Shown piece by piece: positions 4,254 to 61,400 of a stretch of 64,000 nt of DNA; the stretch's first letter is position 1, and every line of letters starts with the position of its first letter. The stretch spans positions 1-64,000 of the forward strand of contig MEDY01000132.1 of NCBI GenBank assembly GCA_001724265.1. The letters run 5' to 3'. The notes beneath the pieces were generated by a model, which saw only the letters and a list, made by a program, of their open reading frames with translations, had not been told where the DNA came from and made no database searches. This DNA comes from Rhizaria sp. SCN 62-66. Its lineage: Eukaryota. The position numbers were made by a program, and so were the translations under genes.

Positions 4254-7200
4254 ATGTCCCAACAGGAGACGCGCCGCGCGACGCCGAAAACGGCGCCCGC
4301 GGCCCCCAGCAAGGCAACGCCAGCACCCACCCAGCCTCCGTCCGGCCGCAGCGGCCACGGTCCCGAGCAAGACGACGGTAAGGAAGACCACCGCCGCCAC
4401 CACTCGCCCACGACCGACGTCCCCAAGACCGCGACGGGCCGCGCGACGGAGATCTCGCTCCCGGCCTGCGCGGCCAAGGGCATTCCCGCGGCGGCCGCGG
4501 CGCTGACTCATGATATCCGCCGCACCCCGGACCACTTCTCGAAGCAGCTTGCAAGCGGCCGCAAGGCGCTCAAAAGCGTCAAGCGCAGCAGCCGCGACGA
4601 GGACCGCTGCCGTGACGCGCGTCGCGCCTGTTTTGCTAAGCACGCACGCTACCGGTACGTATATGCGATCGCATTTGTTGAAGTGAAAAGCGATCTGGAG
4701 CGACTTGAAGAAACTTGAACGTGAATGGATATTCACAATAATCAACTTGAAACAGCGTTGACTAGTCGAAGAACCGGATCAAAATGTCTAATCTTTCTTT
4801 ATCGTAATGTTTCACCTTAATTTTAGTCTGCCTGAGACGTCTGAAGTGCTTTTCCGCCGCGGCGCTGACATCCGCCACTGCCCTCGCACTTTCCTCGCCG
4901 CCATCGAGCGCGGCCGCTCCTCTCTGCACAAGTCCCCGCTGTCATCGCTCATGAGCTTCCGCGCCAGCGCTAACCCCAACGCACCGACGTGGGCCGTCCG
5001 CCCTCTTCTCTCGCGTGCGAGTGCAATCTACCCCTCGGCGCTGTCGCTGCTGCCGCCCGCCGAGCGCGCCGCGCTGCGACTGAGGCTCACGCCGCTGGGA
5101 CTCGCACCATGGTTCTCGTCCTACCCGTTTCCCGCTATTGCCGTCACCAAGGGCGGTGCGGGCGGAAAGGCGGGCTCCGCCGCGCGCGTCGAGAAGCTAG
5201 CTCAGGCCGCAGCTGACATCGAGCAAGCTGCGGTAGACACGGCACTGGCGCGTCGCAACGCAATCCAGGAGTACTTAACACAAACGCGCAAGGCCAACCC
5301 TTTCCGCACCACGCAAATTGCCGAGGTGAGTAAGGAGTGCCCTGCGGATATCCGCATCAATTCTCCGGCGTTCCTCAAGGACATCAAGGCCGCCAAGTCC
5401 AAGCTGCGCGCAATTCCCACCACCGCGAATACCAGTAACCGCAATAGCCAGGACTTTACTGCCAGCATCATCCCTTTGCCGAGCTACAAGCCCGCCGCTA
5501 TCGCGCACAACCGCGGCCGCTTCAAGACCGACCTGTGGTTTGCCCGCCGCGACCGCGCAATCCAGACGCTGCGTTGCAACCCCGCCGACCTGCGGCTTAA
5601 CTTAAAGAGCTTTACGACCGCGATTAGCAAGGGCGGCAAGTCGCTCAAGAGCGTCAACGGATCCGTGCTCGACCGGCTTAAGCGTGTCTTCAGCTCCAAG
5701 GAGAAGGAAGCACCCCCGCCTAAGACTACAGCAACGGCAGCGGCGGCGGCGGCTGCGGCGGCGGTGAGCGAGCAGCGCGTGCACTTGCCGTGGCCTATCG
5801 CGGCCTCGCGCTCAAACTTCTGCTACCGCATGCGCCACAGCCACGGCCACGGCGACAAGGACAAGGGCAAGTCCAAGCAAGAGAAGCAGCCGGAGAAGCA
5901 GAACATCGAGCGCGGTCTCGGTGCGCTGCAACTGGGCGCTAACACAAACAATAGCGGCGGCAGTGGCGGGGATAAGAGTAAGAGCAACAAGAAGCACGTC
6001 ACCCGGTAGAGTGATTTGCCCCCCAGTACTTACACCAACAACACTTACACCAATATCAACGCTACCTCCGCTCGCAGCAGCACTGCAACGACTAAGCACC
6101 ACCCGGGCACTTACACGGGCCCAGGTACTTACATGGGTGAGGGCGGGAGCAGCGGCGAAGACTACGACGAGCAGGAGCAGGAGGACGGCGTCCATCCGAC
6201 CGCGCTGGCGGCGACGGCAGCGAGCACGCAGAGTATGCGGCCGGGCGCAAAGCAGCCCAGTGCGGCGACTGCGAGTGCACCTAGTACCCTAAAGCTCGTT
6301 TCGCTGCCGTTGCCACCGCCGTCCCCAGTCGCTGCTTCTGGCAAGACACAGCTACAGCCTCAGCCCCAGTCTCAGCAACAGCAGCAACAGGTGCAGTCGC
6401 AGACTTCGCAGCAGCAACAACAGCAACAGCAGATGCTTCCGCACATCGGTCTGACCGACTGGCAGCAAAGGCGTCTTGACGTCGCAATGCACCCCGGTTC
6501 CGCGCACGTCCACATTGCAGATCGCGCCAACGCCGACGCTATGCTCGCAAGCGGGCGGGGCCGAGGCAAGGCCGCAGCCATCCCGGCAACAGCCGCCGCA
6601 GCCCTCACGGCCACTGCCACTGCCGCTGCCACTGCTGTCGCTGCGACTGCGGCGAGTGCTGCTGTACCTGATGCGCTCCGCAACGTGCCGCCGCGCAATG
6701 TCCTCTCGCCAGACACCACTCTGGCTGACCGTTACGACACCTCCGTCTTCCCTCCTGACGCGCCCTTGGTCGCACTGTGGGTGCCGCGGGTCCTCGATTC
6801 CAGGCCCTTTGACGCGCGCTGGCGGCCTCACGAGTTTGCGCGCGGAATCCAAGCCGCGCGGCTTAACTTGGCGCACGTGCGGCGCAGAGACCGTGGGCTG
6901 GAGAGGTGGGAGGCCGCGCAGAGCGAGCGCTGGAGGGAAATCGAGAAATACGGAGACGTGCACACGAAGAGCAGGCTGCTCCGGCTTGGTTCTGCTGAAT
7001 TAGCGAAGGCGCAGAAGGAGGAGCAGGCAGCAGCCGAGGCCGCGACTGGCAGTGCGGGTACGAAAGCTAAATTCGGCGACATCGGCAGTGACAGTGACAC
7101 TCTGAGCGGCCCAACCAAGCATACGCCTGCTGCTCCTGCTGCTCTTGCGAAGACGCCCGCTGGCTCCGGTGCGACCGCGAATGCGCCAGCTCTTGCGGCC

Positions 7201-10083
7201 GCAGGTGCTCTTGCAGCTGCTAGCAGCCTCGCCGCAACTGGCATCGGCACTGGCGCTGGCGCTGGCTCTACTGCTCCCGCTCGGGACTCGAGTGTAAGTA
7301 CTGGGGAGGCGTCATCTCAGGGTACGCCGTATAGGTTCGACCCACGTATAACGGACCTCGCCGCCTTCGAGCGCGGCTTAACTTCCGTCAAGAAGACCCT
7401 GCACCAAGTCGACAGCAGCAGCGGCGCTGACGACGCCCAGGGTAAGGTTAAGGCTGGGGGTGGCGTTAAGGTTGAGCATGGTGGCGACGATCCGGACAAT
7501 ATCTACCACCACCCTGAGCGGCTGCAACCGCGGTCGGATATCGACCATCTGCGCAGTCACGGCACGCACCTGGGGCCGCACTACCTCATCACCACGCCCA
7601 CGGCGCACGCTGCCACCGCCGCTCTCACTCCCGCAGCCGCGACGCTGCCGTCGCGCCATAGTGATGAGGCGGGGCGGCGCGCTGGTGCCCACGACAGCGC
7701 TAGCGGCAGCAACTTCTGGCGTGCGCAGTATACAGCGGCTGCCATGGCGGCCGCGGCAACCGCAACGCGCGCTATCGCGTATACAGCGCGTCAGCGGCTC
7801 GGCCTGTCGTTCGTACAGGCGCAGCAGCCGCAGAGCATGCGCCACGGCGCCGCTGGTGTTAGTACCCCCTTAGGCGGCGTAAGTACCCCCTTAGGTGGTG
7901 TAAGTACCCCATCAGCCGTGAGTCTGGGCCGCGGCGGCATGAGCGCGCCCGCATTGCGCGAGGCGCTGCGCGAGCAGCGCCAGGAGTACGAGCGGCAGCA
8001 TAGCAAGCCGTTTGTCCCTCGCAGCGCGAGCAAGGCGGGTGAGCCACAGGACGGCGCAGCGACGGCCGGTCCGCCTAGCGCCGTTCGCGGTCAGTCTGAG
8101 TCGCAGTCGATAGCGCAGCTGCAGGCGGAGTCCAAGTCAAAGCAGGCGCAGCCACCGTCGCAGTCGACTGCTGAGCTCGCAAGCGCCCAGAGTCACAGTG
8201 CAGCGCACCACGCGGTGCAGAAGTACCGCCGCGACATCGGCCTGCCGACGACCAACCCGCCCCATAGTAGCAAGGCGGAGGGCCTTCACGTCGCTGCTGC
8301 TGACCGCACCGCCGCCACAGAGCCTGACTACCGCAAGGGATGCTATTTACGAAAGTTTTTCGATAGCAACGAGCTCGTCGGCGCTCTCAAGTACCAGCGC
8401 ACGCGTCTGCGGCACAACAAGACCCGCCCCAGCATCCACTGCGGGTACGTGCTCGGCCGTGTGTGCCGCACACTAGAGGCGCCGGTGTACGCGAGCGCGA
8501 CGAGCGGCCAAGCGCCGGGGCTGCGAAGGGGCGGCAGTCTTAGGGGCGCGGGCTCGGTCGGAAGTCAAGCCGCCACGGGTACCGAGCACGCGGGTACCAC
8601 TGACAGCAGCAGTGGCAACGGTGGTGCGGCTAGCGGCGCGGTGACTGGTTCCCGCGCAATCATCGGCGGCTACCGAGGCGGCAATTACACTAGCGGCAGC
8701 ATTGACAGGCCGCCGTCTGTGACCCGCAAGACCAGCGTCGGTGTCTATGCGACCAACGACACTCATGCGCGCACTTTCAGCGTCCCGAGTCACCCTACCG
8801 CAGCAGCAACAACAACAGCAGCAAACACTGGCGCTGGCGCTGGTGCTGGCCACGCTGGCGCGGGCGCGAGCGCAGGTGACAGCACTGATAGTGGTGCAAG
8901 CGCCGCGTCGGTCGGCGTTCTGCCGGTCACAGTCGCCATGGCGCGCGAGAACGCAAAGCAAGCGTCGCACGCCAGCGCGAGCGGCACGGGCACTGCAGCC
9001 AGCACGGCCGCTGCCAAGGCTGCCGATACGCGCGCTAGTTCCGGTGAAGGGCTTGTGACTGTGCGCGGGGGCTCGAAGCACAGTCCAAGACTTGACGCCA
9101 CGCCGGTGACGTTCGAGCAAGCTGAGGACGACGCGCGACGCCGCTTTTTCGCACACGAGCTCGAGGGCCTCAGCGACGAAGATGGCGCTGCGCCGAGTGC
9201 CGCTGCGCTCGCGAGCAAGGCGCAGACTGTGACCGGATCCAGCGCAGATAAGGCGATGGTGTCGGCGGCGGCGACAACTGCGGCGAGTGCGGCGGGCGCT
9301 AAGACAGCGTCCAAGAACGTAGCGCAAGTGCTAGGCGCGAAGATGTGGGAAGCGCCCACCGTCTCGTCACTGAACAAGACCAAGGCCGCCGCTGGCACGA
9401 CTGCAACCGCTGTCAACATCACACCGACCAGCGCCGGCGGTACTCACACGGCCTCCCCTGCCGCCGCTGCAGCATCTAACCTTAAAAAGCAACAAGGTAA
9501 GGGCAAGAAGCAGCAGCAACACACGCAGGCACAGGCGCAGACGCAATCTCAGGCACAGACGCAGGCGCAGGCTCAGTTGCAGGCGCAGCAAGAGCGGCAG
9601 CGCAAGCAGGAGAGCGACGCTGCGACCGCCGCGTTGCTGCAGCAGGCCAAGGAGCGCGCGTTAACTCAAGAGCGCGAAGAGCAACTGCAGCGCGACCGCG
9701 ACCGCGAGCTCAGTCTGTCCTCCGAGCGCCGCCGCATCAGTCAAGAGCGTGACCGTGAGCAGCAGCAACAGCAGCGTCAGCGCGACCGTGAGCGCGACCG
9801 TGAGCAGGGCGACCGTGAGCGCAGCCGAGGCAGTGTGTCGCGTGACCGTGAGCAGCGCATGTCCATGGCACACATGATCTCTGCATTGGCCAGCGCGCCG
9901 GGCGCCAGCCACGCTCTCGGTGGCCGCAGCAACAACGCCAGCGGTGACCGCGACCGCGATCGTGACCGTGAGAGTGACAGTGAGCAAGCTGTTCCTGGTC
10001 GTGGCGGCGGCGGCGGCAGCAGCGGCGGTGGCGGTGGCAAGGCAAGGGGCAAGGGGAAGGGTAAGGGACACAAGCGCCGGTAA
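4254..10083 (+). CDS. Multi-WH2-like repeat protein (~1885 aa if read through TAG 6007-6009); exons 4254-4654, 4827-10083
   Basis: Intron 4655-4826 (GTACGT...TTTTAG) joins ORF 4254 in frame to ORF 4807. ORF 4807-6009 and ORF 6016-10083 share a frame and are separated only by TAG. About 7 helix+L[KRH]x[VI] repeats lie on both sides of the TAG. RD/RE-rich coiled C-terminus; stop TAA. Confidence 0.65.
7855..7910 (+). repeat. 21-bp tandem repeat (~2.7 copies) encoding GVSTPLG
   Basis: GGTGTTAGTACCCCCTTAGGC GGCGTAAGTACCCCCTTAGGT GGTGTAAGTACCCC. Confidence 0.9.
9691..9972 (+). repeat. Degenerate CGYGAC/CGTGAG hexamer repeats encoding RD/RE dipeptide tracts
   Basis: Repeated cgcgaccgtgagc units; translation RDRDRE...RDRERDRE...RDRDRDRE. 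Confidence 0.7.
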
Positions 10084-10794: not shown

Positions 10795-13700
10795 TTACCG
10801 GTGTTGCTGTTGCTGCTGCAGCTGTTGCTGTTGTTGCTGTTGCTGCATGTACTGCATCAGCAGCAGTTGCTGCTGCAGAGGGCTCGTGCCTGCCTGCGGA
10901 AACGCGGTGCCCGCGGAGACACCGGTGTTACCAAGCGCCGCCATAGCGCCATTCGCACCTAAACCGGGAGAGACGATCGTGCCGGCGCCTGCATTCGCGT
11001 TCGCCGCCACGGCGAGGTTGCTGCGGCTCCCTAGCGCACCGCCGAGGCCGCCGCCGTTGAGGCCGCCGCCGTTGAGGCCGAGGCCGAGGCCACCTGTCGC
11101 CGAAGACGTTGAGGGGGAAAGTGTGCTCGTGGGCGCAGCGCCAACGCTGTGATTGTTGGGAACAGTGGAGTTACTATTGGATGCGCCAGAGGCGGCCGCG
11201 AGTAAGGCTTGCAGCGCGCTCATGTTGCCGCCGCTGCCACTCTGGCCGAGCGCGTGGCCGTGAGCGACCGACTGCGAGGTACTTAGACCGCCACCCAAGG
11301 CACTTAGACCGGAGCCACCGCCGCCGCCACCACTAAGTGCAAGGGTGGACAACGGCGACACAGCCGCGTTGCCGGCGGCAAACGAGCCAGGACTCGTCGC
11401 GCTCACAACGCTGCTGCTCGCCGTGCGAAGAGAAGTTAAGCCGCCGCTACCAAGAGGGGCAACGGAAGCGTTGACAGCGGAAGGGAAGCGAGTGTGGGCC
11501 ATGTTTTGATTCATGCCAGCAGCGGCGTTGGCTTGCATCTGGAGTTGCTGCTGCTGCTGCTGAAGCTGCAACTGCAACTGAAGTTGTTGCTGCTGTTGTT
11601 GTTGCTGCTGCAGCTGTTGAATCATTTGCTGCTGCTGTTGGTAAGCAATCAGCGCAGCAAGGTCGTTCGCGGAAATACCGTCAATGCCGCCGTTGCCAAT
11701 GAACGTGCCCCCACGCTGCTGTTGCTGTTGCTGCTGTTGCTGATGTTGTTGCTGCTGCTGCAAAGCGAGCGCGGCGGCGTTGACGTTGAGCGGACTGTAC
11801 GCCCCGCCACCGAACGCGCTGCCCGCGCCGGCGAATCCGCCCGTGGCTGCGCCGCCGTTACCAGTGACACCGCCCAGTGCGCCGACGCCGCTGAGCGCGC
11901 CCAGCCCGAGCCCGGACATCCCGCCCGCGAAGCCCGCGGCGGCGGCGGCGGCCATCGCGGAGGAGGGCGTCCCCATCATGTCCGCGAACGCGCCGTTGCC
12001 GCCGGGGCTGTTGGGGCCTCCGGGTGCGGCGGCCGCAGCAGCGGCGGCGGCGGCGGCGGCGGAGGCGGCGGCGGCGGCGGCGGCCTTCTGCTTGGCCGTG
12101 CCGCCCGCCGCGCCTGCGCCACGCTTCGCCCCCGTCCCGCCGCTGTTGATACTGCTGCTGCTGCCGCCGGTGCCAGTGGTGAAGCCGTCGGCGCCGGTGT
12201 TAAGCGCCGCGTGCGCTGCGGCCGACGCCGCCGCGACCAGCGCTGCGGCGCGCGTGGGCGAGACAGCACCGCGCACGAACACGCCGGTGCTGGCGCCGGC
12301 GCCTCCGCCGGCTGCGCCGCCGCCGCCCGCGGCTGCGGACGTGATGCCGGTGCACGTGCGGATGTAGAACTCCTTACCGACTTGGAGGCGGCGCGCGAGG
12401 TCGAAGGAGCCCAGGGCGTCTTTGTTCTTGCTCATGCGCTCGGCCAGCTTGTCGGAGCGCTTCTGCTGGTACGCCTTGCAGTGCAGGTACTTAAAGTTGA
12501 ACACCTAAAAACAAGAGAGAGAATTGACAACATAAATGAGTGATTATAAAATAAAAACAAAAAGTAAACTTGGAAATATATCATTATGAAAATGCTTCTT
12601 GTGAGAAATTTGGAGTTGTGACGCAGAATGTGACAGAGATAGCTTTGTTTTCGTGAGTGTACGTACCCTGCCGTCGGCGCCAATGGGGCTGGTATGGAGC
12701 AAACAGTCAACCTCTGCACCGCGGCGGAACGTGCAGCAGCACATACCGGCCTGCGGCGGGTGCAGATCCGCCCACACCATGCAGTGCAGGCAATACCACT
12801 GCTTGGCCGTGATGTCGCCGAAGACGTTGGGGAAATAGGGTCCGAAGTACTCGCTTTGCACCGCGAGGCAGTCGCCGCAGATGGCGCGATGGCTGTGGTT
12901 AACGCCGTTGCACCACAGGTTCGTGCACCACAAACGCTCGGGGAAGAGGTACGACTTGGCGAGGCAGTCGCGCCGAACTTCGTCTTCGTCGTCGTTGTCG
13001 TTGTCATCTTCGCCGCCCGCACCGACGCCGCCACCGCCGCCGTCGCCGCCGTCGCCGTCGTCGTCGATCATTTCGTAGCCCTTGCTGCCCCCGGCCGCGG
13101 CCGCGCCGCCGCGGCGCTTAGACGCGGCCGCTGTCGCCCCAGTGGCGGCAGCGGCAGTGGCAGTTGCAGCGGCAGCGCCGGCTGCCAAGCGGCCGCGAGG
13201 GACGGCGGCGGCCGCGACGGCGGCGGCCGTGGCAGCCAGTCGCCCGCCGCGGCTGGAGCGGCCCTGCCCCCGGCCCGCCACCGGCCCACCAACACCGCCA
13301 GCAGCAGCAGCAGTCGCAGCGGCGGCGGCGGCGGTGGCGGCGGTGGAGGCAGCAGCAGAGGCTTCGGTGGCGGCGGGATGCGCTGGGTCAGACGGCGACG
13401 GCGACAACGCGGTCTGCGACACCGATGCCGCCGCAGCAGCAGGAGGAGACACGGCGCCCGCGCCAGCAGCAACAGCACCAGGAGCGATCGCTGCGCCTGA
13501 CGCAGACGTCGTCGCAGTTGCCAGCGTTGCGGCCGCGGTTGCGCTGGCGCTGGCATTGGCGGTGCTGTTGGTCGAGGGCGACTGTGAGCGCGGCGAGCTC
13601 GACTTGGGCGACAGCGACCGGGGCGACTTGCCCCCGCCCGCGCCGCCCGCGCCCACAGTGGTTCCGTTCCACATCCCGCCCGTGGCGGCGGCGTCGCGCT

Positions 13701-16700
13701 TGACGCTCTGCAGCACGGTCGGCGGCAGCACGCCGCGCGCGACGAGCGCGGTGAAGCGGCGCTCGCGGCGGCGCTTGAGTATCGCCCACCCAACACCGCA
13801 GAAGGAGCAGCACGCGCGCTCGCTCTTCTCCTGCGCGACGCGGAGGTAGTGGCCCAGCAGGTGGCGCAGGGCCGCGTTGTCGTCGGCGGAGTCCCCGGGG
13901 ACGAGGGCGGGGGCGCCGGCGCCGGTCAAGGGGTCGATGGCCGCGGCGGCGGGCGAGGGTGCGCTGATGCCCGTCACGGGGGTGCTTAGGAGCGTCGGCT
14001 GCTGTTGCTGTTGCTGCTGTTGTTGCAAAGCGAGTTGTTGTTGGAGTAGAAGCAACTGCTGTTGCTGTTGCTGCTGGAGTTGCTGCTGTTGCGCTAACGC
14101 GGCCAACAAAGCACTATTCGTCGTTGCACCACCAGCACTAGCAGCAGCAGCGCCAGCAGCGTTAGCAGCAACAGAAGCAGGAAGGGGCGGGCTCACTGTT
14201 GCGTGGCGTGGAATTCCGCTCGGTGGCGACCGCGCCCTCCGGCCACTCGCAGCCGGCGCATGAAGTTCCGGCTTAACTTCCTCGCCGAGCAGCGGCTTAC
14301 CTTCCGTCTTGACCAACGCGCCGCCGCCATTCCGCTGCTGCTGTTGCAGTTGCTGGTCGATCTGCCGCTGCTCCTGCTGCGCCGCGAGCGCGAGGCTGAG
14401 CTCGCCCAGCTGCTCAGTGGCGCGCAGCACACCCTGGCTAGACGGAGAGAGGGCGCGGCGCTGGTCGAGGGGGGAGAGCGGACGCAGAGAGCGGACCTGT
14501 GCCTGCTGCGTCTGCTGCTGCTGCTGTTGCAGTTGTTGATGCTGGAGCTGGGTGAGCGCACGAGGGGAGAGCGGGGCTGCTGCGCCGCTGCCGCCGCTAG
14601 CGCCGCCCGCAGCAAGCACAGCAGGTGCAGAGTGACCATCGCTCATGTGCAGGGTCCCAACAGCAGCAGCGCTGCTGCTGCTGCTGCTGCTGTTGCTGTT
14701 GCTGCTCGCGAGTGTGCCTGCCACCACCGCGGAGGCGACGGTTTGCAGCGCCGTCACGGCCGCGGCGAGGCTGTCGGCCGTCGCGGCGTTCGCCTGCGCC
14801 GCCAGCAGCAGCAGAGGCGTTGCGCTGTCAAAGCCGCACTCGTTGTGCGCGTCGCTGTCGTAAGCCTCGCTCGCGCCGCCGCTGCTGGTGTTTCGATGCA
14901 CGCAGATACTGCTCCCACACGCACTCGCGCTGGCACTGGCGCTGGCGGTGACGGTGCTGAGACTGCGGCTACTGTTGTTGTTGTCGTTGTTGCCGTTGCT
15001 GTTGGCCGAGTTAAGGAAGCAGGAAACGGCACGGCGCACAGCCTTGAGGTCAATCCCAGCCGCAGCGGCCGCAGCAACGGCGGCATCGCTGTCACCACTG
15101 CTGCTGCTGCTGCCACTGCTGTTGTTGCTGTTGCTGCTGTTGTTGTTGTTGGTGTGGGTGAGGTCAGTGATCGCGCTCGCGTCTGCGGCCGCGATGAGCG
15201 CGTCCAGGCAGTTGCGCGCGTGCGTCAGCTCGGCCGCGCGCTGTTTCAGCGTCACCGTGACCGTGTGCGCAGTGTGCAGTGACACAAGCTCGCTCTCTTC
15301 CCCCGCAGTCAGCGGCGGCGCCTCGGCGCTATGGTCCGCCGCGTCCCCCGCCTCGCTACTATGGGCGAGGAAGCGCCGCTGCAACGCCGTGTAGCGCTCC
15401 ATCAGCGCGCGCGTGAAGGGCGGCAGCGAGGCGAGAGTGACCGTGAGCGCCGAGGAGACCGAGTCGACGGCTGAGGCGCGCGCCAGCAGACCTGGCACGG
15501 TGGCCGTGACGGTGGGCGCGGCGATGTCGTCGTCGGGGGGCAAAGACGCGAGCAAGCGGGCGGTGGTGGCGGCGGCGGTCACGGCGACGGGGGCCGACTC
15601 GTTCGGACCACTCGCACTCACACTCCCACTCGCAACTGAGGCGTCAGTCAGAATAGCAGCGCCAGCGCCAACGCCACTGTGAGTGAGGGCGTTCGCGTTA
15701 GTAGTGTTGTTGTTGTTCATGTTGCTGGGGAGAACGGAGATGGTCGCGGTGTAGGCAGAGAGGAGCGCGTGGCGGACACTTCCATCCTCGACTAAGGGGG
15801 TACTTAGACTCGACTCGGCGGGGGTATGACTGCGATTCATGGTACACGCGTCGTAGTAGCGGCTGAGAATACTGTCGCAGCCCTCATTGTTCACAGTCGA
15901 GCTCGGGCCACTGGCACCGGCGTCCGTTGTCGACGCAGGTAGCAGGGCGAACAGAGCGGGCAACACCGCTGGCGGCGCGAGGGTCGCGACTGCGACGCGG
16001 CCCACCTTCTCCGCAGCGGCGGGGCTTAGTTGGGCGGCGATGCTCCCGCAGTCGACACCGCCGCGCAAAACACGCTTTTCGACCTCGGCCCTCTCGTCAT
16101 CACTCAAAACACCCGTGCTGGCGCTGCTAGCGCCAGTCTCGAGCTTGAGGGCCACAGCGTTGCCGCCGCTGCTGTTGCTGCCGCTGCTGCTGCTGCTGTT
16201 GTTGTTGAGATTGCTCAGAGTGTGTGAAAGAGGCAAACACTCGATGATGAGTGAGACTGAGGGGGCGGCTTGACTTTGAGCAGCGCGCGCTGAAGCACGG
16301 GTCAGCGGCACTGCACCGGACCACTGCGACTGCGACTGTGAGCTGTTGTTATTGACTGTGAGCAGGCGCACGAAGTTAGGCCGCATCGCGGATACAGGGA
16401 CTGCCATCGCAGTCGCCGCCGTAGCGGCAGCCGCAGTGACAATAGCGAACAAAGCAGAGCCTAAGAACAGCTTCAGAGCAGACATTTCGCTGTCGCTGTT
16501 GTCGCAGCTCAGCACACCGCTCTCGTCAGCCGCACCAGTGGTGTTGCTGGTGCTGCTGCTGTTGTTGTTGCTGCTATCGCCGTCGTTGTCGTCGGTCATC
16601 GCCTGGCCGCGCGAGCTACTCAGCCCCAGCTGAGGGGTACTTAGACTGCCGGTACTTGCATTGCCCCCCATCGCCAAAGTCTGCTTGAACAGCGCGTCCG

Positions 16701-29503: not shown

Positions 29504-30006
29504 CGATAACAAACACCGCGCTCTTCGGATCGCTTGTAGAGCAGTGAAACGGCTGTTTTAAGTCCGGTCACACAGATTTGTGGTTTGAATGAGAATCGAT
29601 GTTATACCTAGAGATTTTAGAAGCGAATACAGAAATAAAACATAAAATACGACGAATATTGCCGGTTGTAAAAAGAGATAATCACATTTACCAAGTACAG
29701 TCGGTATTCTTAGTTTCTCGATTGTACTAACCACAAATAGTTTGCAAATATCTGTTTTTCAAAATTCTGTTTTATAATTATGAACTTTTCAACAAATAGC
29801 CCACAAACCGATGATATTAAAAGAAAAAACATACATTCTACAAGATATTCAAATTTTAATTGGAATGAACACGGTTAAGCACCGCACAGAGTCTTCAATC
29901 TTCTTTGTATCTTTGTATTCAGTTAAGCTTATCGCCCATCATGCCAACCACTAAACTTCCATTGCAAACACTTCAATCTATTTCGCAAGCGCCTTTCCGA
30001 GCTTGC

Positions 30007-46200: not shown

Positions 46201-49200
46201 TGTTGCTGTTGTTGTTGCTGCTGTTGTTGTTGTTGAAGCAGTTGCTGCTGTTGAGCGTTGGCGTTGTGATAGGGCGAAGGCGACGCCGACTGCGAGTGCG
46301 AGCGGAAAGGCGTGCCGACAGGGGTGGGGGCGCGGCGCGGGGGCACCACGGGCATACCGCCAGCACTACGTAAATGCAATAACATCAAAAGCAAAGACAA
46401 AGCAGACAACGATGAAGCGTAAGTTTGGGATCCGGTCGAGTGAAAAAATGTGAGATTTCTTGCGTTAGAGGATGTTAACAGTGCGATTTTAGAATGAAAT
46501 TAAAACATATGTGATAGCCGTTTAAAACACAAGATATGCTATAACATCAGATTATATTGGCATCCTTTGCGTGATGATATATGATGCATCATCGTACCTG
46601 GACGTGGGGCGTAGAGCAGACCCGGGCGTGCCGGGCCTCGACGGGGGCCGCACCGGTGTCGCAGGCGTCCCCCTCGCGTTAATATTAGCCGCGGTGCCCG
46701 TGACTCCCGCGTTACTGCCGTGGTACGGCGACGGCGACGGCACAGGCCGCATCGGCGACGGCGACGGTGTGTACCGTCCCGCCCCGGAAGCTAAGCCGCC
46801 ATGTGTTCCCGCGGCACGCGCGGGGTCGGCCAGCCGCTGCTGCTGTTGCTGCACGAGCTGCGTCTGCAGTGCCTGTTGCGCCTGCTGCTGCTGCGCGCGC
46901 CCGGCCTCTGCCAGCCTCCTTTGCTCCGCAAGCGCCGCCGCCTGCTGCTGCTGAATGGCGGTGGTCTCGGCGACACGGGCTTGGATGACGCCGCGCCGTT
47001 GCGCCTCGGCGTCGGCTTCGGCGCGCGCGCGGGCGGCGGCGACCGCGGCGGCGGCGCGCTGGGCCTCGGTGGCACGGAGCTGCTCGTGCTCGCGGGAAAG
47101 CGCGGCCTCGGCGACGAGGCGCTCCTGGCGCGCCAGCGCGGCTTCCTAATCATAACAAAAATGCATCAATAAACAGCAAAGATCAAGATTTAGAGCAATA
47201 AAACAACACAGAAAATGTATATAAGACAACTTTAAATAATAGCATCCGCTTTCAGATCTCTACAAGATGTTATAGGGCCTCCGTTATGGTGCTAATATGT
47301 TTTGTCGTGCGTACCTGCGTGAGGCGGGCAATGCGCGCCTCCGCCTCGCTGATCGCCGCCGTCGTCTCGGTCGTCAGGCCCGTCCGCGGGTCGACCGCGA
47401 AGTCGGCGCCGATGCCAATGCCGGAGCCGGGGCCGCCGGAGCGAGCGGGGGAGAAGCCGCCGACAGGGCGGAGCGGTGAATCTGATCGCAGTCTCTGCCT
47501 GTGGTGGGGGCTCGCCACCCCGCCCTCGCGCTCACGGTCACGGTCGCGGCCGGTGCTGCTGAGGGACGGGGGCGAGGCGGAGGGGAGGATGGAGACAGTG
47601 CCGAAACGGTTCGCGGATGGGGTGCCGTTGCCGTGCCTGCGTATATAATGTGAAAAACAGAGTGAAAGACACAAAAGTGCAGTTTGTGAACATATACGAA
47701 CTTGCTGAGACATAATTTGACAAGATTATAGTAAAGCACATTAAAAGACACACAAAAGATAAGTTTAGACTTAATATATCCACAGATTCATGAGAAATAT
47801 TGTTTTGAGTGAAGTGGTTGTCCGTACCTGTCGACAGCAGGAGTGCCTGCGCGCGAGGCTGAGCCAAACCGAGCCTCGACCGCAGAGTCTAGAATCGCAT
47901 TCACACGGGCAGCGGCAATATCGTACGGACTAGGAGGCGGCTTAAGTACCCCGCCACGCGGCTTAACTTCCGCGTCGTCGCCGGCGTCAGCGCTGGGAAC
48001 CGCTCTCCGCAAGGGAGTCGCAGGGAACGACTGTTGCTGTTGCTTGTTTGCACTTGTACTGCTACTGGTCCTGGAGCCTAATCCCTGCTGCTGCAGTTGC
48101 TGCAGCTGCTGTTCTTGCTGCTGTGCGTTAACCAGAGTGAGCGCTTCGTCTTCGTTCAGTCCCCTTACGCGCATGAGCGAAACTGCACGGAGCAGCATGT
48201 CCATATCCTGTTCTCCTCCGCCGTTGCCGTCGCCGTTGCCGTCGCCGCCGTCGTCAGAGCCGCCTTGCTGCTGGCCGCCGGCAATGCGACCCTGAAGGGC
48301 TGCAATGGCGGCGACGGTCTCAGCGTCCAAACCACCTGTGGGGTTAACGGCGATATTCGGGTTGGAGTTAGGATAGAACTGAGCACGCCCTTGAGACAGT
48401 TGCTGAGACTGCTGTTGTTGAGCCTGAGCCTGCGACTGCGACTGAGACTGCTGCAGAGCGAGCTGTTGCTGCTGCTGTTGTTGCTGCTGTTCTTCTTGCT
48501 CCTGGTGGTGCTGCAGCATCATCGCCGCAATCGTTTGCGCCACCGCCACTTGCTGCTGCTCCTGCTCCTGCTTCAGCGCCGCAATCTCAGCCCGCTGCCG
48601 CGCCAGCTCCGCCTGCTGCCACGCGACCACGGCCACGGGGTCATGCGACGCGGGGCCACTTACATTGGCATTGGCGGCACTTAGGTTCGCCAGGCTCGCG
48701 CTAGCGTTGACGCCCGCGGTGTTGCTATCGAGGATACCGATGGCGTTGCCGTTGATGTTGTTGTTTCCGGCGAGTGCGGCCATGGTTTGACTGCGCAGCG
48801 CAGCAATAGCGTCGCTCTGCGCGTTCGCCAGCGCGGACGGCAGCGCAGCAACCGCGCTCGCGGCAGCAGCGTTGTTGTTGTTGCTGTTGAGCATCTCAGT
48901 ATTGGTGCTGCTGATGTTCGGGACAGGGAGGATCAGACCTGGGGCGGCGGCGGCGGCGGCTTGGTTCAGCACCAAGGGGGGCGCAGAGTCCAGGGGCAAC
49001 GGCTCCTCCGGATGGCGGCGTTTGAAATGGCGGCAGATCGCGCTGTGGCTCGCGAAGACTGCGGTGCACAGCGTGCAGGGGTACAGCGCGGCCGGCAAGG
49101 CCCGGTCCAGTGACAGCACAACTGCCGCAGCGGACGCGTCAACAGCGCTGGCGTTGTTGTTGGCAGGAGCAGCAGAGTAGCCCGGTTGTTGCTGCTGCAG

Positions 49201-49809
49201 CTGCTGCAGCTGTTGGGGGGTGTGATGCAGGTTCTTGAGCGTGAGTTGTGCCTGCGCTAACTGCGCCGCTAATGCAAGCTTCTCACTCTCCGCCGCCGCA
49301 GCGGCAGCGCGCGCGCGCTCGGCGTCGGCGCGGGCGGCCGCAGCCTCCGCCGCGGCGGCGTCCAGCGCGGCGCGAGCCTTGACCTGCGTGGTGTCAACGT
49401 CGCGGCGGCTTGAGTCGGCTTTGGTCTCGAGATCGTCGAGCTCGCGTAAGAGAGCGTTTTGCGTGTTGATGAGGTACTCTTGCTGAAGCTGCATGAAGCG
49501 CAGCAGGTGCAGCGTGTTGGCGGGTGGCATGCCGGAGACTTCGGCGAGCGTGATGTCGGCGAAGGACGTGTGGGGCACGGAGTTGTGAAGCTGCATGAGG
49601 TCCTTGCTGGCGACGACACGGTCCAGGTCGAGGCCCAGAATGAAGTCCCAGTTCAGCGCGCCCGTGCGGCGGCGGAAGCGGATGTCGCGGGTCAGCTGCG
49701 GCATCCACGGGGGCTGCTGCTGCTGCTGTTGGGGAGCAGGGGCAGGGACTGAGTAGCCGACGCCGCCGCTGCCCTGAGGCCCCCCCATCCCTTGTCGATA
49801 GGAGCTCAT
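43233..49809 (-). CDS. DZIP1/Iguana-like protein: Dzip-like_N, C2H2 finger, coiled coils, Pro-rich region, C2-like module (~1994 aa); exons 49809-47828, 47636-47315, 47145-46598, 46365-43233
   Basis: FRRRTGALNWDFILGLDLDRVV...LLRFMQLQQEYLINTQ matches the Dzip-like N-terminal pattern; YPCTLCTAVFASHSAICRHFKRRH is a C2H2 finger. Three GTACG..AG introns join all segments in frame. Stop TAA. Confidence 0.8.
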
Positions 49810-54027: not shown

Positions 54028-54373
54028 ATGGTACGACTTCCCATCGCTCTTATTTTTGACTATTACACGTTATCTGTGCGTTATTACAATTATTTACTAA
54101 CGCAACTTGCATACCTATTGTTAACCTGGTTTATTTCTTGTTTTTGCGTTCCAGAGCTCGCACCACCTCACTGCTCCCAACAGCAGCAGCAGCGGCGGCA
54201 GCGGCGGCAGCGGCGGCAGCGGCACCACACACGGCCCGCCACGCGCCCCACCGCCCCCCGTGGCGCCGCAGAGGCCCACTGACTCGTCTCAGCAGCCTGC
54301 CACAGCAGCCGCCCCTGCGACTGCGACTGTGAGCGTCTCTCGACGCGGCTCGCTGGCAAACATCATCGCCGGT

Positions 54374-54419
<46 letters not shown>

Positions 54420-55368: not shown

Positions 55369-55406
<38 letters not shown>

Positions 55407-58400
55407 GTGAGGCGGTCGTTCGTCGTGGCTCGCTGCCTGAGTTGCCCCCTCCGTCACCCACTGCCGCGGCCAAAGCAGACGCGACCACTCCAGCAACTGC
55501 TGCACATGCGACGGAACACACGGTAAGGACCGCGGTTACCGGCACAACTGACGCAACCGCTGTGACCGGGTCCAGCGACTCGCTGCCACAGTCGAAGGCG
55601 CAGTCTCGGACGCACTCGCGCTCACAGTCGGTGGTCAAAGTTAAGCCGCACGAGTCAGTGTTGGATGCGGTGAACAACGCTGAAATCAACGAAGCCAGCA
55701 CCATTGACGAAAACGGCGTCGTCGTCAGCAATGTCGTGGGAAGTAGCAAGAACGAGAATGCTGGGACTGTTCTTATGGTGACTCCGCCGACAGCGGCCGC
55801 GGATGTGTTCAGTCAGCAACACCAGCTCACTGTTGATGTTGCCTCGACTTCGGCGGCGACGTCATCCGCCGACAACACTCTCAACAGCAACGCCGCCAAG
55901 AACAATGCCACGAGTAACAATAACAATTATAACCTGAGTGTGGGCTATCACAACCTCAGTGGCAGTGACAAGTTTGCGACCCCATTAGACTCGCGCCAGA
56001 GCCCCTTACACGCACAGTCTGAGCACGGTGTGCAGCTGCACTCCGGCGCCGTTGATGTCAATTCGTCGCCGCTTCCGTTGCCGCAGTCGTTTAGAGCGGT
56101 GAACAACGAGCTGACCAAGAGCGCGAGCGCTGACACTGCCCTGGGCACCAATCTCACGCGCGGCAAGAACAACAGTAGCAGCGGCAGCAGCACCGCGGTG
56201 AGCACGAACGCTCACAGTGACACGCACGCGGGCTTGGTCGCCGCCAGTGACAGCGGCCTCAAGACTGCTGCTCACGGCACGGACGCTCATATCGACGGTC
56301 ACAGTAGTGAAAACAAGGACGCCGCTGCTGGAGCCACTACCACTGCTACGACGGCGTCGACTAAGGCACCCACCGAGGCGACAGCTGCGGCGGCGACGGA
56401 GGCCGCGACTGCTACTACTGCTGTTGACGGCGCTAATGGTGTTGTTTCCCCCAAGGCTAAGGGTGCCAAGTCGAAGGGCAGCGCGAAGTCGGAGTCTAAG
56501 GGTGCCGAATCCGCATCGAACGCCATTGAGGACGCTGTATCTAAGGACCCCGTGTCAAAGGGGGCCGAGTCTGAGGCTGAGTCTAAGGGCTCCAAGCCCA
56601 AGACTGGTGCTGAGAAGGCTGACCATGTAGCTGCTGACGATACCGAGAAGACTGTCGCCGCTGCCGCGACTGGCGCTGTGGCGATTGGAGCCGCTGCCGC
56701 TCTCGCAGCGACCGCCGCTACGGCCGATTCTCATGCGACCGCCACAGACTCTGCTGCCACTCCTGCCGCTGCGAATGCTGTCGCGTCCCCGACCGGCAAG
56801 AAGGCGAAGAAGGACAAGAAAGGCAAAGCCGGCCCCGCCAGCGGAAGCCCCGCGGCCTCTACAAGCGCCAGCGCCAGCGCCCGGTCCAGCCCCGCGGCCA
56901 GCACCGCCGTCTCACGCACCGCGACCGCCACCACCTCGGCACTAGCTGCGACTGCGGCCCCGGCGGTGGCGACAGCGACTGTGATCAAAGCGCCCGTGGC
57001 TCCGCATGCCGCCGCGGCAGCGGTGAACTGTTTCACCTTGCAAGATGACGAATACGCGGAGAAATACGACAAGACCAGTGCCAACGCAGCAGCAAATCAC
57101 GCGACTGAGAAGACGCCTACATCGGCGGTCAACGCCAGCTCGAGCTCTGGTGTCAGCGGCGTCACACTGGAGACGTCGTCGTCTAAGGGTGGCGTTGACG
57201 CGCGCAGTGTAAGCACCCCCTCAGTGCAGCGTAAGGGCGCGTTTGAGATCATCCCGTTAGTCAAGCCGCCCCTGACGCCGCAGGGTACTTACCCCGCGGA
57301 CGGCGCTTACGTCATCGCGACTGACCGCACTTACATCCCCGCGCCGTCTCCCGCACACAGCGATGCAAGCGCCACTTCTGACCGCATGAGCCCCAACGCC
57401 AATGATAAGAGCGTGCACACTAGTGGCCGCAGCAGCAGTCGAAGCTCTCTCAACGCGCTCATCATGCCCCTTAGTCCCAGCAACAGTGCGTACATCGCCC
57501 CCGTGGCGGAGGACGGCAACGACGACGACGCCAACCTCAACGATGACGACGACGACGACGACGACGACGGCGACGGATACGGCGGCGCCAAGGCCCCCAA
57601 GGCCCGCGCGTTTGTGTTCGCGGACGTCGCCGAAAGCAGCGCGCGCGCGGCCGACCCACGCCGCTCCTCTCTCACCACTCTTAACAGCAATAGCAACAGC
57701 AATAACTCCGCTGGCATGAGCGGCGCTACCGCGCGCACGAGCAGTGCCGCCGGCACAAGGCCCACGACGAGCGTGTCCGTTGCGACGCCGCGCAACGCCA
57801 ACGGGACTGAGAAGGTCCCTTCCGTGGCCGCTGCTGAGACTGCTGCTGCTTCGGGAGCGGTTGGCAAGACCGAAAGCACGAAGCGTGCGGCGCAGCGGCG
57901 CGCGATCGAGATCCTGCACTTGGATCCCCGCGGCGGCGTCATCCTGGCCTCGGAGGAGGAGGCCAAGGCGCTGGAGGCCGCAAAGAACATCAAGAACCCC
58001 TTCGCAACCGCACTCAGTAACGCTGCTGACGGCGCGACGGGCGACGCCGCGTCGACAACAACCAGTGTTGGCAAGGATGTCAGTGAGGCGCTCGCACTGG
58101 CGGCCGCCACTGCTAGCCGCGCCCAAACCTCCGCCAGTGCGACGGGAACGGACTCCTCGGAAAACAGCACCGGCGATAGCGGCGCTAGCAGCGGTAAGAA
58201 GAACCGCGTCGTCGTCGACGGCGCTGTGACGCTTAACGCCAGCGACTTCGCCACGGCCGACGAAGTGCTGACATGCGGGCCCAAGGGTGGGCTCGGCGAG
58301 GGCGCCTGCCTCGCCCCGTCGCTTAAGTCGTTCGTGGCGAGCTGGGACGCGCAGCTGGAGAAGAAGTTTCCCCTTGCACACGGCCCGTCGTTCGAGTCGG

Positions 58401-61400
58401 ACCTGCGCTCGCTGGCCAAGCGCCGCCAGAGCCGCAGCGTGACTCTGCAGCAGCGGCTCGCCACGGGCTCGTTACCGCCACAGACGTCTCTGCTAGTCGT
58501 GATTGCTGTGCACGGCCTGCACACGGTCGCCGCGGCAACGGAAATCGCGCGCACCGCCGCCGCCGAGGCCGCCGCGGCGGCGGTGACCGCGGCTGGCGGC
58601 AACAGCAAGAAGGCGGCGGCCGCGTTCGCCGCCGAGATGGCCAAGTCGGCCGCCCCCGGTGCCGTGGTGCCGATGGTGCCGCTGCCGATTATGGTCGAGT
58701 TCCAGCGCCTGCGCGCGCACCGCTCGACGCTGCACGACCCCAGCGGCGGGAGTAGCGCGGCGGCGGACAAGTCCGCTGTGGCGACCGAGGATTCCGAGTA
58801 TGAGACCACTGTTCGCACTCCAGGTATGTTCAATAAGTGTCCCGCTTCTACCGCTTATAAGCACCATCACTCTGTTTTCTTTTGCTATGTTGTGAAACTA
58901 ACAATGACTTATCCACCGTGTATAATTTAACTTCGAAGCCTTCATCTCATTGATATATCTTGCTTTTCTCTTTGTTTCCCGTTTGCTTCACAACAACAGG
59001 CCGCGCAGTGCCCATCTTCTCCGAGCCTGGCTCCGGCGGCTTCTTCACCGGTTCCCAGTCCTTCGCGCCGTTGTTGCTGCCCGCCTGGTCGCTGTGCCGC
59101 GACGAGCTCGACCGGCCTGTGCGCGTGCGCGTGCTGTACGCGCCGCTGTCCCCCGCGGAGAACATGCTGGCGGCGACGCTCTCGCCCCAGAGCGACACGG
59201 CGGCACTGGCGAGCGCAACCGCCGCGGCCGCCGCGAGCGCGGCGAGTGTGGGCGCCAAGTACGGCAATTTCCCCGTTATGGCGGCGGTTAAGACTAGTGT
59301 GCGTGAGATTCTGCTCAAGTCTGGCATTAGCGGCAACTTGGCGACGATGGATCTGTTGTCGCCGTTGCCGCCGTTCGTGCAGCAAGTTAAGCCGCTGGCT
59401 GATTACCACCATAAGTTGCTGCCGAACAACAATAAAAGCACGAGTACGGGTCTCGCGCTAAGTACCCCCTTAGAGGTGAACGGGTACTCAGACGGCTTGA
59501 CTTCGTGGTCTCTGCCCTTACACCACAACTCGACCCCCTTAGACGACCTCATCGCCCAGGGCCACAAGCCGGCTCGCTCCTTCCCGCTCGCTTCCTATAT
59601 CAACAACAACAGCGCCAGCGCTACTAGCTCCGGCGGCAGTAGCAAGAAGCAGAGCCCTTCTGTCACCGCGAGCGTGAGCGCGAGCAGGGCGTCGCTGACG
59701 CTGCACGTGTGCTCCCTCATGGCGCCCCGGTCGCTGCCCCTGCTCGTCACCATCGGCAACGCGCTCGCGCTGTCGCAGTCGCTCGCCGTCGTGCAGGGTC
59801 AGTGCGAGTACTTCACGCGTTCGCACGCCCGCCCGCTGGCGCTCGCTCTGCCGTCACAAGCGCAGTCACTCGTGCTGCCCTCCGCGGCCGCCGCGCGCGC
59901 CGCCGTCAGTGCGCGCGCGTTGGAGCTGCAGTTGCGTGAGATCGTCGACCTGATTGCGGCGTTGTCGCTGTTTTCGATCAAGGGACAAAGCAAGAAGGTC
60001 TGGGGCGCGCGTGCAGATGCCATGATCGCACTTAAGCAAGCCGCCGGCCCTTCGGGCACACCGGGCGGCTTAACTTTGAGCAACATCAACAGCCTCAGCG
60101 CAAGTCCCAGCGACGACGAGGACATCTACCACGACGACAACGTCAACGTCGGCGCTTACGACGACGATGACGACGGCGACGGCGATGGATACGAACGTGG
60201 TGACCGTGTGCGCGGCTTAGCTTCCAACCGCAACAGCGGACGCTTGTCGACGTCATCGCGCAAATTCCGCCCTACCACGAGCTCTTCTGCGCATTCCACC
60301 AGCTCTGACACGTATAACTCTGCGGCGTCGTCGCGTTCCTTTGCGACGCAGCGGCAGAAGCGTCTGTCAGCGCGTGCCAGCGCAGATGCCGTCGACAAGT
60401 CCAAGAAAGTCATCGAAAACGCCGCGAAAACGGCTGTTATGGTCGAGGACCCCGTTGTCAAGACACTGCGTGCGTCGTACGACCGGCTGCTAGCGCTGTT
60501 GCCGCGCGCGATGTGTGTCGGCGTTGCCGACGCGCGGGTGCTGGTCGAGCAACTGATCACTGCAATCACGAGTAGTAGCGGTGGTAGAGCAAGAAATAGC
60601 GGCGGCAACAGTGCAAACTCGGTCAAGGTCGCTGCGTACGAGAAGGTGACCGCACAGCTGAAGCTGTTGGCGCCCGCGACGATCCCGCAGACGCTGTGCA
60701 AACACCGCTGCACCGCGCATGCGCCTCTGTACGGAACCCAAGCCGCCAACCCGAACGTCCTCCCCGCGTCTTCCTCGAACAAAAGTCAAGCCGCTGTGTC
60801 CGCCTCCGGTCTCGCCGGCGCGGCGTCCGCGGGCGCGAGCGCGAGCGCCAGTGCAGGCATCAGCGTCAGCACTGGCGGCGCGCTGCTGCGGCCGGAGTGG
60901 CCGGTCTCGCGCGCGCTGCTGCTGGAGCCGGAGACGGGCGTGTTCGTCTCGACAGATCCCACCGTGACGGCGGGCGTGATCACAACAGCCGCCACGCACC
61001 GGCCGACCACTGTCCACAGCAACGCCCCGGCCGGTGCGCAGAGCGGCGGCAAGCAGCAGTTCCGCTCGGTGGTGCCCCTGCCGCTGTACACGCTGCTGAG
61101 CGGCGTCGGCCTCGGCGCGAAGCCCTTCTTGGAGCCGCTGCCAATGCCCCTGCTTGGTTTCCCTCACGTTGTGCAACTGCGCGTCAGCGGCCTGAAGTTA
61201 GGCCGCCCTCTGGCGATACAACAGGGCGTTGTGCTGACGACGGCGGCCAAGAACAAGCGCGCGCTCGAAGCCGCAGCGGCACTGACTGGCGGCGGCGCTG
61301 CTGGTGACGCCTTAAGCAACGCTAACGTTAAGGCGCTGCAGCCGCTGTGCTATTTCCTCCAGGTTCTCACTCTCGACCGCGTTGCGAATCGGACGCCGAC

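Follow-up and report, generated by a model that had tools for sequence, protein, structure and literature searches.

Why does one short, exact word recur through the exons of unrelated genes of a eukaryote, on both strands and in several reading frames? The question is raised by a stretch of 64,000 nucleotides (contig MEDY01000132.1, Rhizaria sp. SCN 62-66; "the window") and by a word family within it that we call F1, whose unit is [A/G]AAGTYAAGCCGC and whose 11-mer core is AAGTTAAGCCG. All 16 exact copies of the core that the initial annotation had listed are found at the coordinates and on the strands that it gave, 8 per strand. In 100 dinucleotide-preserving shuffles the mean is 0.02 copies and the maximum is 1, so that none reached 16. 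Together with four further contigs (25.5 kb), the data cover 89.5 kb of one uncultured organism, and we conclude that F1 is a genuine word of the nuclear genome of this uncultured eukaryote.

F1 is sharply bounded. The many one-mismatch variants that the annotation had also reported are real: 37 copies in the window lie within one mismatch of the 11-mer, 21 of these being one-mismatch variants, of which 10 are AAGTCAAGCCG. The changes are non-random, with 10 of the 21 being T-to-C at base 5 and 19 of the 21 falling inside the central TTAA. The two commonest spellings can be written together as AAGTYAAGCCG (the Y-variant), which has 26 copies in the window (16 with T and 10 with C). A position-by-position tally of these 26 copies gives a unit with abrupt edges, in which the next base is C in 21 copies and the preceding base is A or G in 22. 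Upstream there is only a weak signal, T-G-C at positions -6 to -4 in 11 to 15 of the 26, and no further common sequence was found in their flanks. F1 is also all or none, in that AAGTTAA continues into GCCG in 16 of 20 cases and TTAAGCCG is preceded by AAG in 16 of 18. Sites within two mismatches number 50, compared with 16.1 expected, and the two-mismatch class itself (13 sites) is about what chance predicts. This lack of a decay tail argues for ongoing maintenance of F1. The word is not a palindrome (AAGTTAAGCCGC, compared with its reverse complement GCGGCTTAACTT), since the palindrome is restricted to the central TTAA.

The null models were run on 13 open reading frames (ORFs; 41,058 nt), which hold all 16 exact and all 26 Y-variant copies. 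Shuffling of synonymous codons leaves a mean of 0.33 exact copies (maximum, 2) and 0.79 Y-variant copies (maximum, 4), a codon shuffle leaves 0.02 and 0.03, and a Markov model of order 3 gives 0 of either. Models of order 5 (1.9 exact and 2.0 Y-variant copies) and order 6 (5.3 and 6.9) are circular because they were trained on F1 itself, and they still fall below the observed counts. None of the null models that the annotation had called for thus accounts for the counts. F1 is read in four frames and on both strands, with 11 copies sense and 15 antisense to their genes, and synonymous shuffling removes it; the annotation was right to place the signal in the DNA rather than in peptides or codons. 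Its statement that the copies lie in six unrelated genes holds as to there being multiple genes and fails as to the number, since the 26 copies are spread over 10 long ORFs.

The 16 copies with T are read as xVKP (5 copies), RLN (5 copies) and GLT (6 copies), and none is in the stop-free KLS frame. The R-L-N copies are all antisense (5593 to 5603 and 6859 to 6869 on the minus strand; 38416 to 38426, 39106 to 39116 and 44854 to 44864 on the plus strand), as are the G-L-T copies at 7374 to 7384, 26608 to 26618 and 60066 to 60076 (minus) and at 11433 to 11443 and 44648 to 44658 (plus). Sense copies are read as E-V-K-P at 14269 to 14279 (minus) and 26310 to 26320 (plus; soon after the RHGTRH motif of a MINPP-like gene), as K-V-K-P at 55638 to 55648 (plus) and as Q-V-K-P at 59384 to 59394 (plus). 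The two exact copies not listed here, at 27052 and 47959, belong to the composite pairs described below. The 10 C-variant copies are distributed differently: five are S-Q-A, all sense (1419 to 1429, 8562 to 8572 and 60783 to 60793, plus; 16266 to 16276 and 39047 to 39057, minus), three are RLD, antisense and read as R-L-D-F on the minus strand (28145 to 28155; 28193 to 28203, immediately before a conserved AHAET motif; and 29420 to 29430), one is a sense xVKP copy, read as E-V-K-P (44940 to 44950, minus), and one is an antisense G-L-T copy (59493 to 59503, minus). SQA, which holds 5 of the 10 C-variants, is the sole frame in which T gives an in-frame TAA.

The peptides encoded by F1 are mostly written in a single way. 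GLT tripeptides are spelled GGCTTAACT, with the rare codons TTA and ACT, in 6 of 11 cases, RLN is spelled CGGCTTAAC in 5 of 8, and VKP is spelled GTTAAGCCG in 5 of 10; TTA and CTT make up 7% and 13% of leucine codons. Because one rare-codon spelling predominates, the word drives the peptides and not the reverse. A side effect of codon or codon-pair usage, of peptide motifs or of selection for hidden off-frame stops would be in keeping with the exon confinement of F1, with the TAA that F1 places on both strands, and with a +1-frame TAA count that is somewhat high (72, compared with 53.1 in the null; z = 3.3). However, the shared rare-codon spelling, the 0.33 copies that survive synonymous shuffling where 16 are seen, and the presence of F1 in four frames on two strands leave this explanation with practically no probability. 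Hidden-stop ("ambush") selection was rejected as a candidate in its own right, since off-frame stops are not in general excess (+1 TGA, 201 compared with 254.9; +2 TAA, 193 compared with 236.2). As a separate observation on the coding set, the third antisense frame has far fewer TAG triplets than its synonymous shuffles have (159 compared with 269.6; z = -8.5).

The window is eukaryotic nuclear DNA, and F1 is present in its RNA. The minus strand carries a DDX6/Dhh1 helicase gene (about 21887 to 24100) with six GT..AG introns of 141 to 190 nt, and RNA contigs from runs X6 and X9 show all six removed by splicing. One RNA contig (X6 record 22; 38236 to 38470, no differences) crosses the F1 copy at 38416, and another (X9 record 28; 29381 to 29607) crosses the copy at 29420, with F1 unchanged in both. 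None of the 15 joints listed falls at an F1 copy, and the GT..AG joints among them are the six DDX6 introns. Since RNA contigs cross F1 unchanged and no listed joint is found there, F1 is not an intron end, nor is it an editing site in those contigs. A role as a decoy 5' splice site was also rejected, because the 5' splice sites of DDX6 (AG/GTACG[CT], also written GTACGY, in five of six and AG/GTTCGT in one) are unlike F1. Although the window was taken from a metagenome assembly, the chance that F1 is an assembly or sequencing artefact is negligible: assemblies of four runs from three studies each contain 0.89 to 1.00 of the window's sampled words, contigs of run X3 show 0 differences from the window across stretches of several kilobases, the copies that RNA contigs cross are unchanged in them, and no copy interrupts an ORF.

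Within the window, F1 is confined to exons. The coding set holds 36 of the 37 F1-family copies, the sole copy outside it being a AAGCTAAGCCG variant at 46788 to 46798 (plus), and introns and spacers hold none. Among the 26 Y-variant copies, 0 lie outside the long ORFs. Base composition predicts nearly equal numbers on the two sides, with 0.011 copies in the 22,942 nt outside the coding set compared with 0.010 inside it at order 0, and 0.013 compared with 0.011 at order 1. If copies were evenly spread, the probability that all 26 would fall in the same 64% of the window would be ~1e-5, or ~6e-5 when copies less than 150 nt apart are merged. The long ORFs have a mean of 63.5% G+C (third-position G+C [GC3], 0.55 to 0.81) and the rest of the window has 50.6%; introns and spacers are visibly AT-rich, and the DDX6 introns are AT-rich amid GC-rich exons. 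One F1 pair on L010, one of the four further contigs, lies 10 nt past the TGA that ends an ORF, and F1 may be confined to transcript sequence rather than strictly to coding sequence.

F1 copies are clustered beyond what their number per gene predicts. Conditional on that number, there are 7 gaps of at most 60 nt compared with 2.2 expected (P = 0.003) and 11 of at most 150 nt compared with 5.2 expected (P = 0.0016), and the close pairs within 150 nt comprise 6 direct and 5 inverted pairs. For example, the copy at 14269 has a partner 24 nt away (AAGGTAAGCCG, 14293 to 14303, minus), and a AAGCTAAGCCG variant at 26337 to 26347 (plus) lies 27 nt from the copy at 26310. Inverted partners are 39047 and 39106, and likewise 44648 and a AAGTTAAGCCA variant at 44689 to 44699 (minus). 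No larger composite element was found around clustered copies in the window. When same-strand neighbours at most 60 nt apart are taken from both F1 and a sister family, F2 (see below), over the window plus the four contigs, the spacing is exactly 21 nt in 7 of 18 cases and 42 nt in one; with a single exception, the spacings are multiples of three.

Five F1 pairs have the 21-bp spacing, two in the window (27052/27031 and 47959/47938) and three on the contigs (L010, 1067/1088; L012, 5755/5734; L019, 4988/5009). The first window pair (27031 to 27062, minus) joins an exact copy to a AAGTTAGGCCG variant and encodes GLTSQSDGLTS; the second (47938 to 47969, minus) joins an exact copy to GGTACTTAAGCCGC, a hybrid of F1 and F2, and is read as EVKPRGGVLKPP. 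In all five, the perfect copy is 5' and the weaker copy 3', and the 9-nt spacers are unrelated. The pairs stand in varied frames and orientations, and one is outside coding sequence. The pattern by which the three contig pairs were found permitted start-to-start offsets from 13 to 43, so the value of 21 was not imposed. Two sites on one face of the helix fit these pairs better than recent duplication does.

Whatever process is responsible must recognise about 12 specific bases, ignore strand and frame, be active now and be tied to exons. Because a protein reader of DNA predicts both indifference to strand and sites two turns apart with free spacers, we rank first, tentatively and at less than an even chance, the explanation that F1 is a putative recognition site for a protein that binds double-stranded DNA sequence-specifically and acts on gene bodies. 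We infer both that F1 is read on DNA by a protein and that its maintenance is due to selection and not to drive. F1 would be put into expressed exons by in-place substitution, regardless of frame or strand, with protein coding acting only as a filter, so that stop-creating frames would either be shunned or be saved by the T-to-C variant, and tolerant positions of the protein would take on rare codons and unusual residues. A target of 12 bp would suit, for example, four zinc fingers, and the putative reader would often meet a strong site followed by a weaker one exactly 21 bp, or two helical turns, downstream. Weak selection in a very large population is supposed to keep F1 at its observed density, ~1 copy per 1.6 kb of exon.

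Several points weigh against a DNA-binding reader. Exon confinement is the chief difficulty, since a plain DNA-binding site has no obvious reason to shun non-coding DNA, and yet 36 of 37 copies are coding and none is in AT-rich introns or intergenic DNA, though composition predicts equal numbers (0.011 compared with 0.010). Confinement on the scale of 150-nt introns points to mature mRNA instead. The explanation is based on 64 kb plus 25.5 kb of DNA, and the extra contigs were found through F1. Other words behave alike, which could reflect a general generative process instead of one reader. Finally, 21 nt is seven codons and the spacings are mostly multiples of three, so it is possible that the pairs are diverged tandem duplications of 7 residues.

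The four additional contigs come from a metagenome collection that was scanned with the paired-copy pattern and gave 36 loci, which is about chance level by our estimate. Five of the 36 share one record prefix and are from this organism. One of them, L017, is 100% identical to window positions 45499 to 49676; the others with its prefix (L010, L012, L019 and L029) do not overlap the window and carry both F1 and the other word families of the window. Apart from the pairs through which they were found, the four contigs contain 2 further AAGTYAAGCCG and 11 GGTACTTA copies in 25.5 kb. The enrichment outside the window on which the initial annotation had staked its claim is therefore present but modest, as the contigs were found via F1 pairs and only the extra copies are independent. 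The other metagenome loci are unrelated tandem arrays or EVKP-type peptide repeats. The same pattern gave 0 loci in viral contigs and 24 in prokaryote genomes, none of which has the combined word signature. On an unrelated metagenome contig, L034 (1309 to 1404; 43% G+C), there are five tandem 21-bp units, each beginning AAGTTAAGCCGCCC, in non-coding-looking DNA; the unit length is that of the F1/F2 pairs, and no link to the organism is shown.

F1 is not the only such word. The coding set contains 81 non-periodic 12-mers with at least 3 copies, compared with 9 to 25 in 20 synonymous shuffles, and, triplet-repeat edges aside, these fall into three families: F1, F2 and GCTCAC[GA]GTC[AG]C. F2 is GGGGTACTTAGAC, frequently with CTAAG before it, and its unit can also be given as GGTACTTA[GC]A[CT]. 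The core GGTACTTA has 24 copies in the window compared with 0.5 expected (for example, at 11279, 15800, 16637, 44797, 62600 and 62621). As written, F2 is mostly antisense to the gene, the mRNA reading GT-CTA-AGT-ACC-CC (L-S-T-P), and in 22 of the 30 copies that lie in genes the sense strand has GT[CG]TAAGT[AG]C in a single frame, [LV]-S-[TA]-P. Of 10 spellings of LSTP, 9 start with CTAAG, and 8 of those are CTAAGTACC. F2 also occurs at the 21-nt spacing, as a tandem array of 2.4 units at 7861 to 7910 (minus) and as pairs 21 bp apart at 11279 to 11309 and 37684 to 37714 (plus) and at 62600 to 62630 (minus). At the 3' end and 3' untranslated region (3'UTR) of the DDX6/Dhh1 gene (21040 to 21890, minus), the stop codon lies inside GTC-TAA-GTACC and is followed by about nine further GTCTAAG-type words (F2/F3), all in mRNA sense; these could be a termination, polyadenylation or regulatory element. 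The third family is read in several frames (for example, at 37290 to 37343 and at 16 sites of CACGGTCAC). Together with hexamer-type words such as CGACTGCGA, it is seen as HGH, TVT, ATAT or QSQ depending on gene, frame and strand.

These further words admit a broader explanation, which we regard as possible and no firmer than that. The protist may write a small vocabulary of exact 10- to 13-bp words (AAGTYAAGCCGC, GGGGTACTTAGAC, GCTCACGGTCAC-type) into the exons of many unrelated genes, whatever the frame or strand. Putative dedicated factors that bind nucleic acid would recognise these words, in many cases as tandem sites with a spacing of two helical turns, and the words would serve across the genome as a mark of "expressed self gene". 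Such a vocabulary would be a eukaryotic counterpart, embedded in exons and overlaid on the genetic code, of the iterated words of bacteria.

Exon confinement and the behavior of F2 bear most directly on a reader of RNA. F1 could be an element of mature mRNA that is either bound by a small RNA or an RNA-binding protein or acts through the pairing of sense with antisense copies, within or between transcripts. Apart from confinement, including the L010 pair 10 nt after a stop codon, this is consistent with the unchanged F1 in the two RNA contigs, with the sense bias of F2 (22 of 30 genic copies), with the sense-oriented F2 words that fill the transcribed DDX6 3'UTR, and with five inverted F1 pairs, 41 to 109 nt apart, that are able to form 11-bp stems. 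An exonic RNA cis-element should be confined to the mature transcript, as F1 is, and should also lie on the sense strand. F1 has no such preference (11 sense, 15 antisense), so that two RNA sequences would need to have a function. In addition, a 21-nt spacing is structurally meaningless in single-stranded RNA, and differences in which encoded peptides are tolerated can account for the bias of F2 in frame and strand. We therefore consider an RNA-level element unlikely, if still a serious competitor of the DNA-binding protein.

A different set of explanations concerns how the copies came to be where they are. The TTAA at the center of F1 had suggested to the initial annotation the footprint of a TTAA-centred element. 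An insertion test was possible for two copies only, by alignment with solved proteins. The L010 copy encoding K-V-K-P lies in an ungapped alignment to LMBD1, which has K-I-R-R there, and the copy at 28193 (R-L-D-F) aligns to N-F-R-F of MINPP, with a one-residue gap nearby rather than a gap of four. For these two copies, F1 arose by in-place substitution. Since there is no 4-residue gap at either copy and no decay tail, an insertion or excision footprint is rejected for the testable copies. It is accordingly highly improbable that F1 is what a mobile element targeting TTAA or TTA left behind, as a footprint or a remnant, or that it is an in-frame insertion of 12 bases, even though F1 is centred on TTAA and an insertion of 12 nt would keep the frame: its flanks are dissimilar, diverged copies are not above chance, and the repeat search of the window gave triplet-repeat families only, with no repeat of at least 22 nt carrying F1 and no longer dispersed repeat or resident element with F1.

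Non-functional molecular drive, in which repair or conversion favours F1 (motif-biased gene conversion or short templated patch repair) much as uptake bias drives the uptake sequences of bacteria, fits the in-place copies, which are free of indels. It is also in keeping with the all-or-none, sharply bounded form of F1, with the excess of dispersed non-periodic 12-mers over synonymous shuffles and with further words being found in several frames. The C-variant copies at 16266 and 28145, in different genes and frames, share 18 nt (TGCTCAAAGTCAAGCCGC), from which the copy at 60066 differs only at the T/C position. On the other hand, no donor or template locus is seen and no repeat of at least 22 nt carries F1 in the window. 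Conversion tracts should cross exon-intron borders 150 nt apart, whereas no F1 is found in non-coding DNA, and a fixed 21-bp spacing with unrelated spacers is not predicted. To our knowledge, no eukaryotic process has such 12-bp specificity. Drive thus seems to us a rather improbable origin, about on a par with an RNA element.

Ribosomal RNA (rRNA) offers one candidate for the source of the word itself. The internal control region of the 5S rRNA gene includes box A and box C and is read by TFIIIA. F1 might mimic or complement a conserved rRNA segment and act through a protein that binds 5S rRNA or the 5S gene, or through pairing of mRNA with rRNA. Among the probe sequences printed in PMC5974128, GAAGTTAAGC, F1 plus the base that most often precedes it, is found in the angiosperm 5S probe 5SrDNA_ang_2, and GGAAGCTAAGC, at the end of the craniate probe 5SrDNA_cranial_2, corresponds to the AAGCTAAGCCG variant, of which the window has 3 copies. 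Both matches fall in 5S positions ~45 to 57. Of the other probes in PMC5974128, 5SrDNA_cranial_3 contains GTACTTGGAT, from further downstream and one base from the F2 word GTACTTAGAT, and the universal 18S probe 18SrDNA_UniOP_6 contains GCGGCTTAATTT, 11 of 12 bases of which are identical to the reverse complement of F1. However, these matches are just 10 to 12 nt long (10 to 11 nt for F1 in the 5S control region), were found by looking for them, and involve probes from other organisms. The 5S match stops where F1 goes on as CGC, and the enriched words include no other 5S segments. Rfam gives no rRNA, and hence no 5S gene, in the window or the four contigs. Unlike the boxes of the control region, F1 and F2 are dispersed separately, in exons and in both orientations. 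A relationship to rRNA is a lead and no more, and a very improbable one.

Among known systems, the closest to F1 are bacterial, and 12-bp chromosome-identity motifs of animals are also close, matching F1 in kingdom and in length. The uptake signal sequences of Pasteurellaceae (USS) and the DNA uptake sequences of Neisseriaceae (DUS) are, like F1, short exact words, hundreds-fold over-represented, that occur on either strand and in several frames within genes, arise in place where the protein tolerates substitution, and have weak flanks around a sharp core. HIP1 is a highly iterated 8-bp palindrome of cyanobacteria; its function is unresolved, and it is possibly maintained by repair bias. It resembles F1 in having about one copy per kilobase within coding sequence, irrespective of frame. 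The comparison with DUS and HIP1 that the initial annotation had drawn thus fits the anatomy of F1, which is frame free, strand free and sharply bounded. In contrast to USS and DUS, the host of F1 is a eukaryote with spliceosomal introns (the six DDX6 introns are spliced) and not a competent bacterium, and F1 avoids non-coding DNA, whereas many uptake sequences are intergenic and often form inverted pairs at terminators. We know of no DNA-uptake bias in eukaryotes. In contrast to HIP1, F1 is a 12- to 13-bp non-palindrome that is eukaryotic, confined to exons and arranged in 21-bp tandems.

Caenorhabditis elegans has 12-bp pairing-center motifs and dosage-compensation (rex/MEX) motifs. Comparable elements are the MSL recognition signatures of the Drosophila X chromosome (PMC3355045). 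Like F1, all of these motifs are ~12 bp long, dispersed, locally dense, clustered and found in either orientation. Sequence-specific DNA-binding proteins read the animal motifs and so mark a chromosome or set of genes. The animal motifs are restricted to particular chromosomes and are mostly non-coding, whereas F1 is coding. The piggyBac and PIF/Harbinger transposons, whose target sites and excision footprints involve TTAA and TTA, respectively, share the TTAA or TTA core with F1. Unlike their footprints, F1 is without an indel at the two testable copies and without element ends, diverged relics or resident elements in the window. Because its host is not a competent bacterium, its word is not a palindrome and its copies sit in exons, F1 is a member neither of the bacterial classes nor of the chromosome-identity motifs. 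Word-based searches of open-access papers and preprints found no description of F1 or of a frame-independent exonic word in a eukaryote, and the matches listed for F1 sequence strings are, in the parts of those sources available, primers or constructs.

The remaining one-mismatch copies in the window are at 16373 to 16383 (AAGTTAGGCCG, plus), 17236 to 17246 (AAGTTTAGCCG, plus), 26640 to 26650 (AAGTGAAGCCG, minus), 27593 to 27603 (AAGTTGAGCCG, minus), 60213 to 60223 (AAGCTAAGCCG, minus) and 61195 to 61205 (AAGTTAGGCCG, plus). The MINPP-like histidine phosphatase gene (25472 to 29503, plus), which has long acidic and low-complexity inserts, has the lowest GC3 of the set (0.55) and the most F1-family copies (10 in 4 kb). 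Other ORF products in the window are a Dzip1-like ciliary protein, an IQ-motif protein, cathepsin L and numerous proteins of low complexity in which Q, N, S and A abound. At two places, 6007 to 6009 (plus; ORFs 4792 to 10080) and 37869 to 37871 (minus; ORFs 36240 to 40484), an in-frame TAG links a pair of long ORFs that share a frame, and no long ORFs in the window are merged when TGA or TAA is taken as sense. The two TAGs could reflect TAG as a sense codon, readthrough, tiny in-frame introns or pseudogenes. An apparent third case, at 33224 to 33226, looks like the 3' end of an intron. Stop-codon reassignment was rejected as a cause of F1: two pairs of long ORFs fuse if TAG is taken as sense, yet F1 copies are not at ORF breaks.

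The organism itself is GC-rich and CAG-repeat-rich, has cilium genes and comes from wastewater and bioreactor communities; the runs that carry the stretch are labelled as bioreactor, wastewater and activated-sludge metagenomes. Close relatives of the window's proteins were not found in the protein collections searched. In those collections, the Dzip1-like protein matches only itself and the best match to cathepsin L is 41% identical, and a DDX6 exon has 58 to 67% identity to plants, green algae and amoebozoans alike. Rfam and tRNA scans found nothing in the window, and an Rfam scan of the four extra contigs gave only sub-threshold low-complexity matches.

Bacteria have iterated words that prevail over codon choice, namely uptake sequences and HIP1, and there these words reveal a genome-wide reader or a molecular drive. 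In a eukaryote, a 12-base word whose exact form is maintained in exons would constitute a second layer of information that competes with the protein code. A 33-bp probe would give a handle on the reader protein or the repair bias, and F1 would serve as a signature for the DNA of this organism in wastewater metagenomes.

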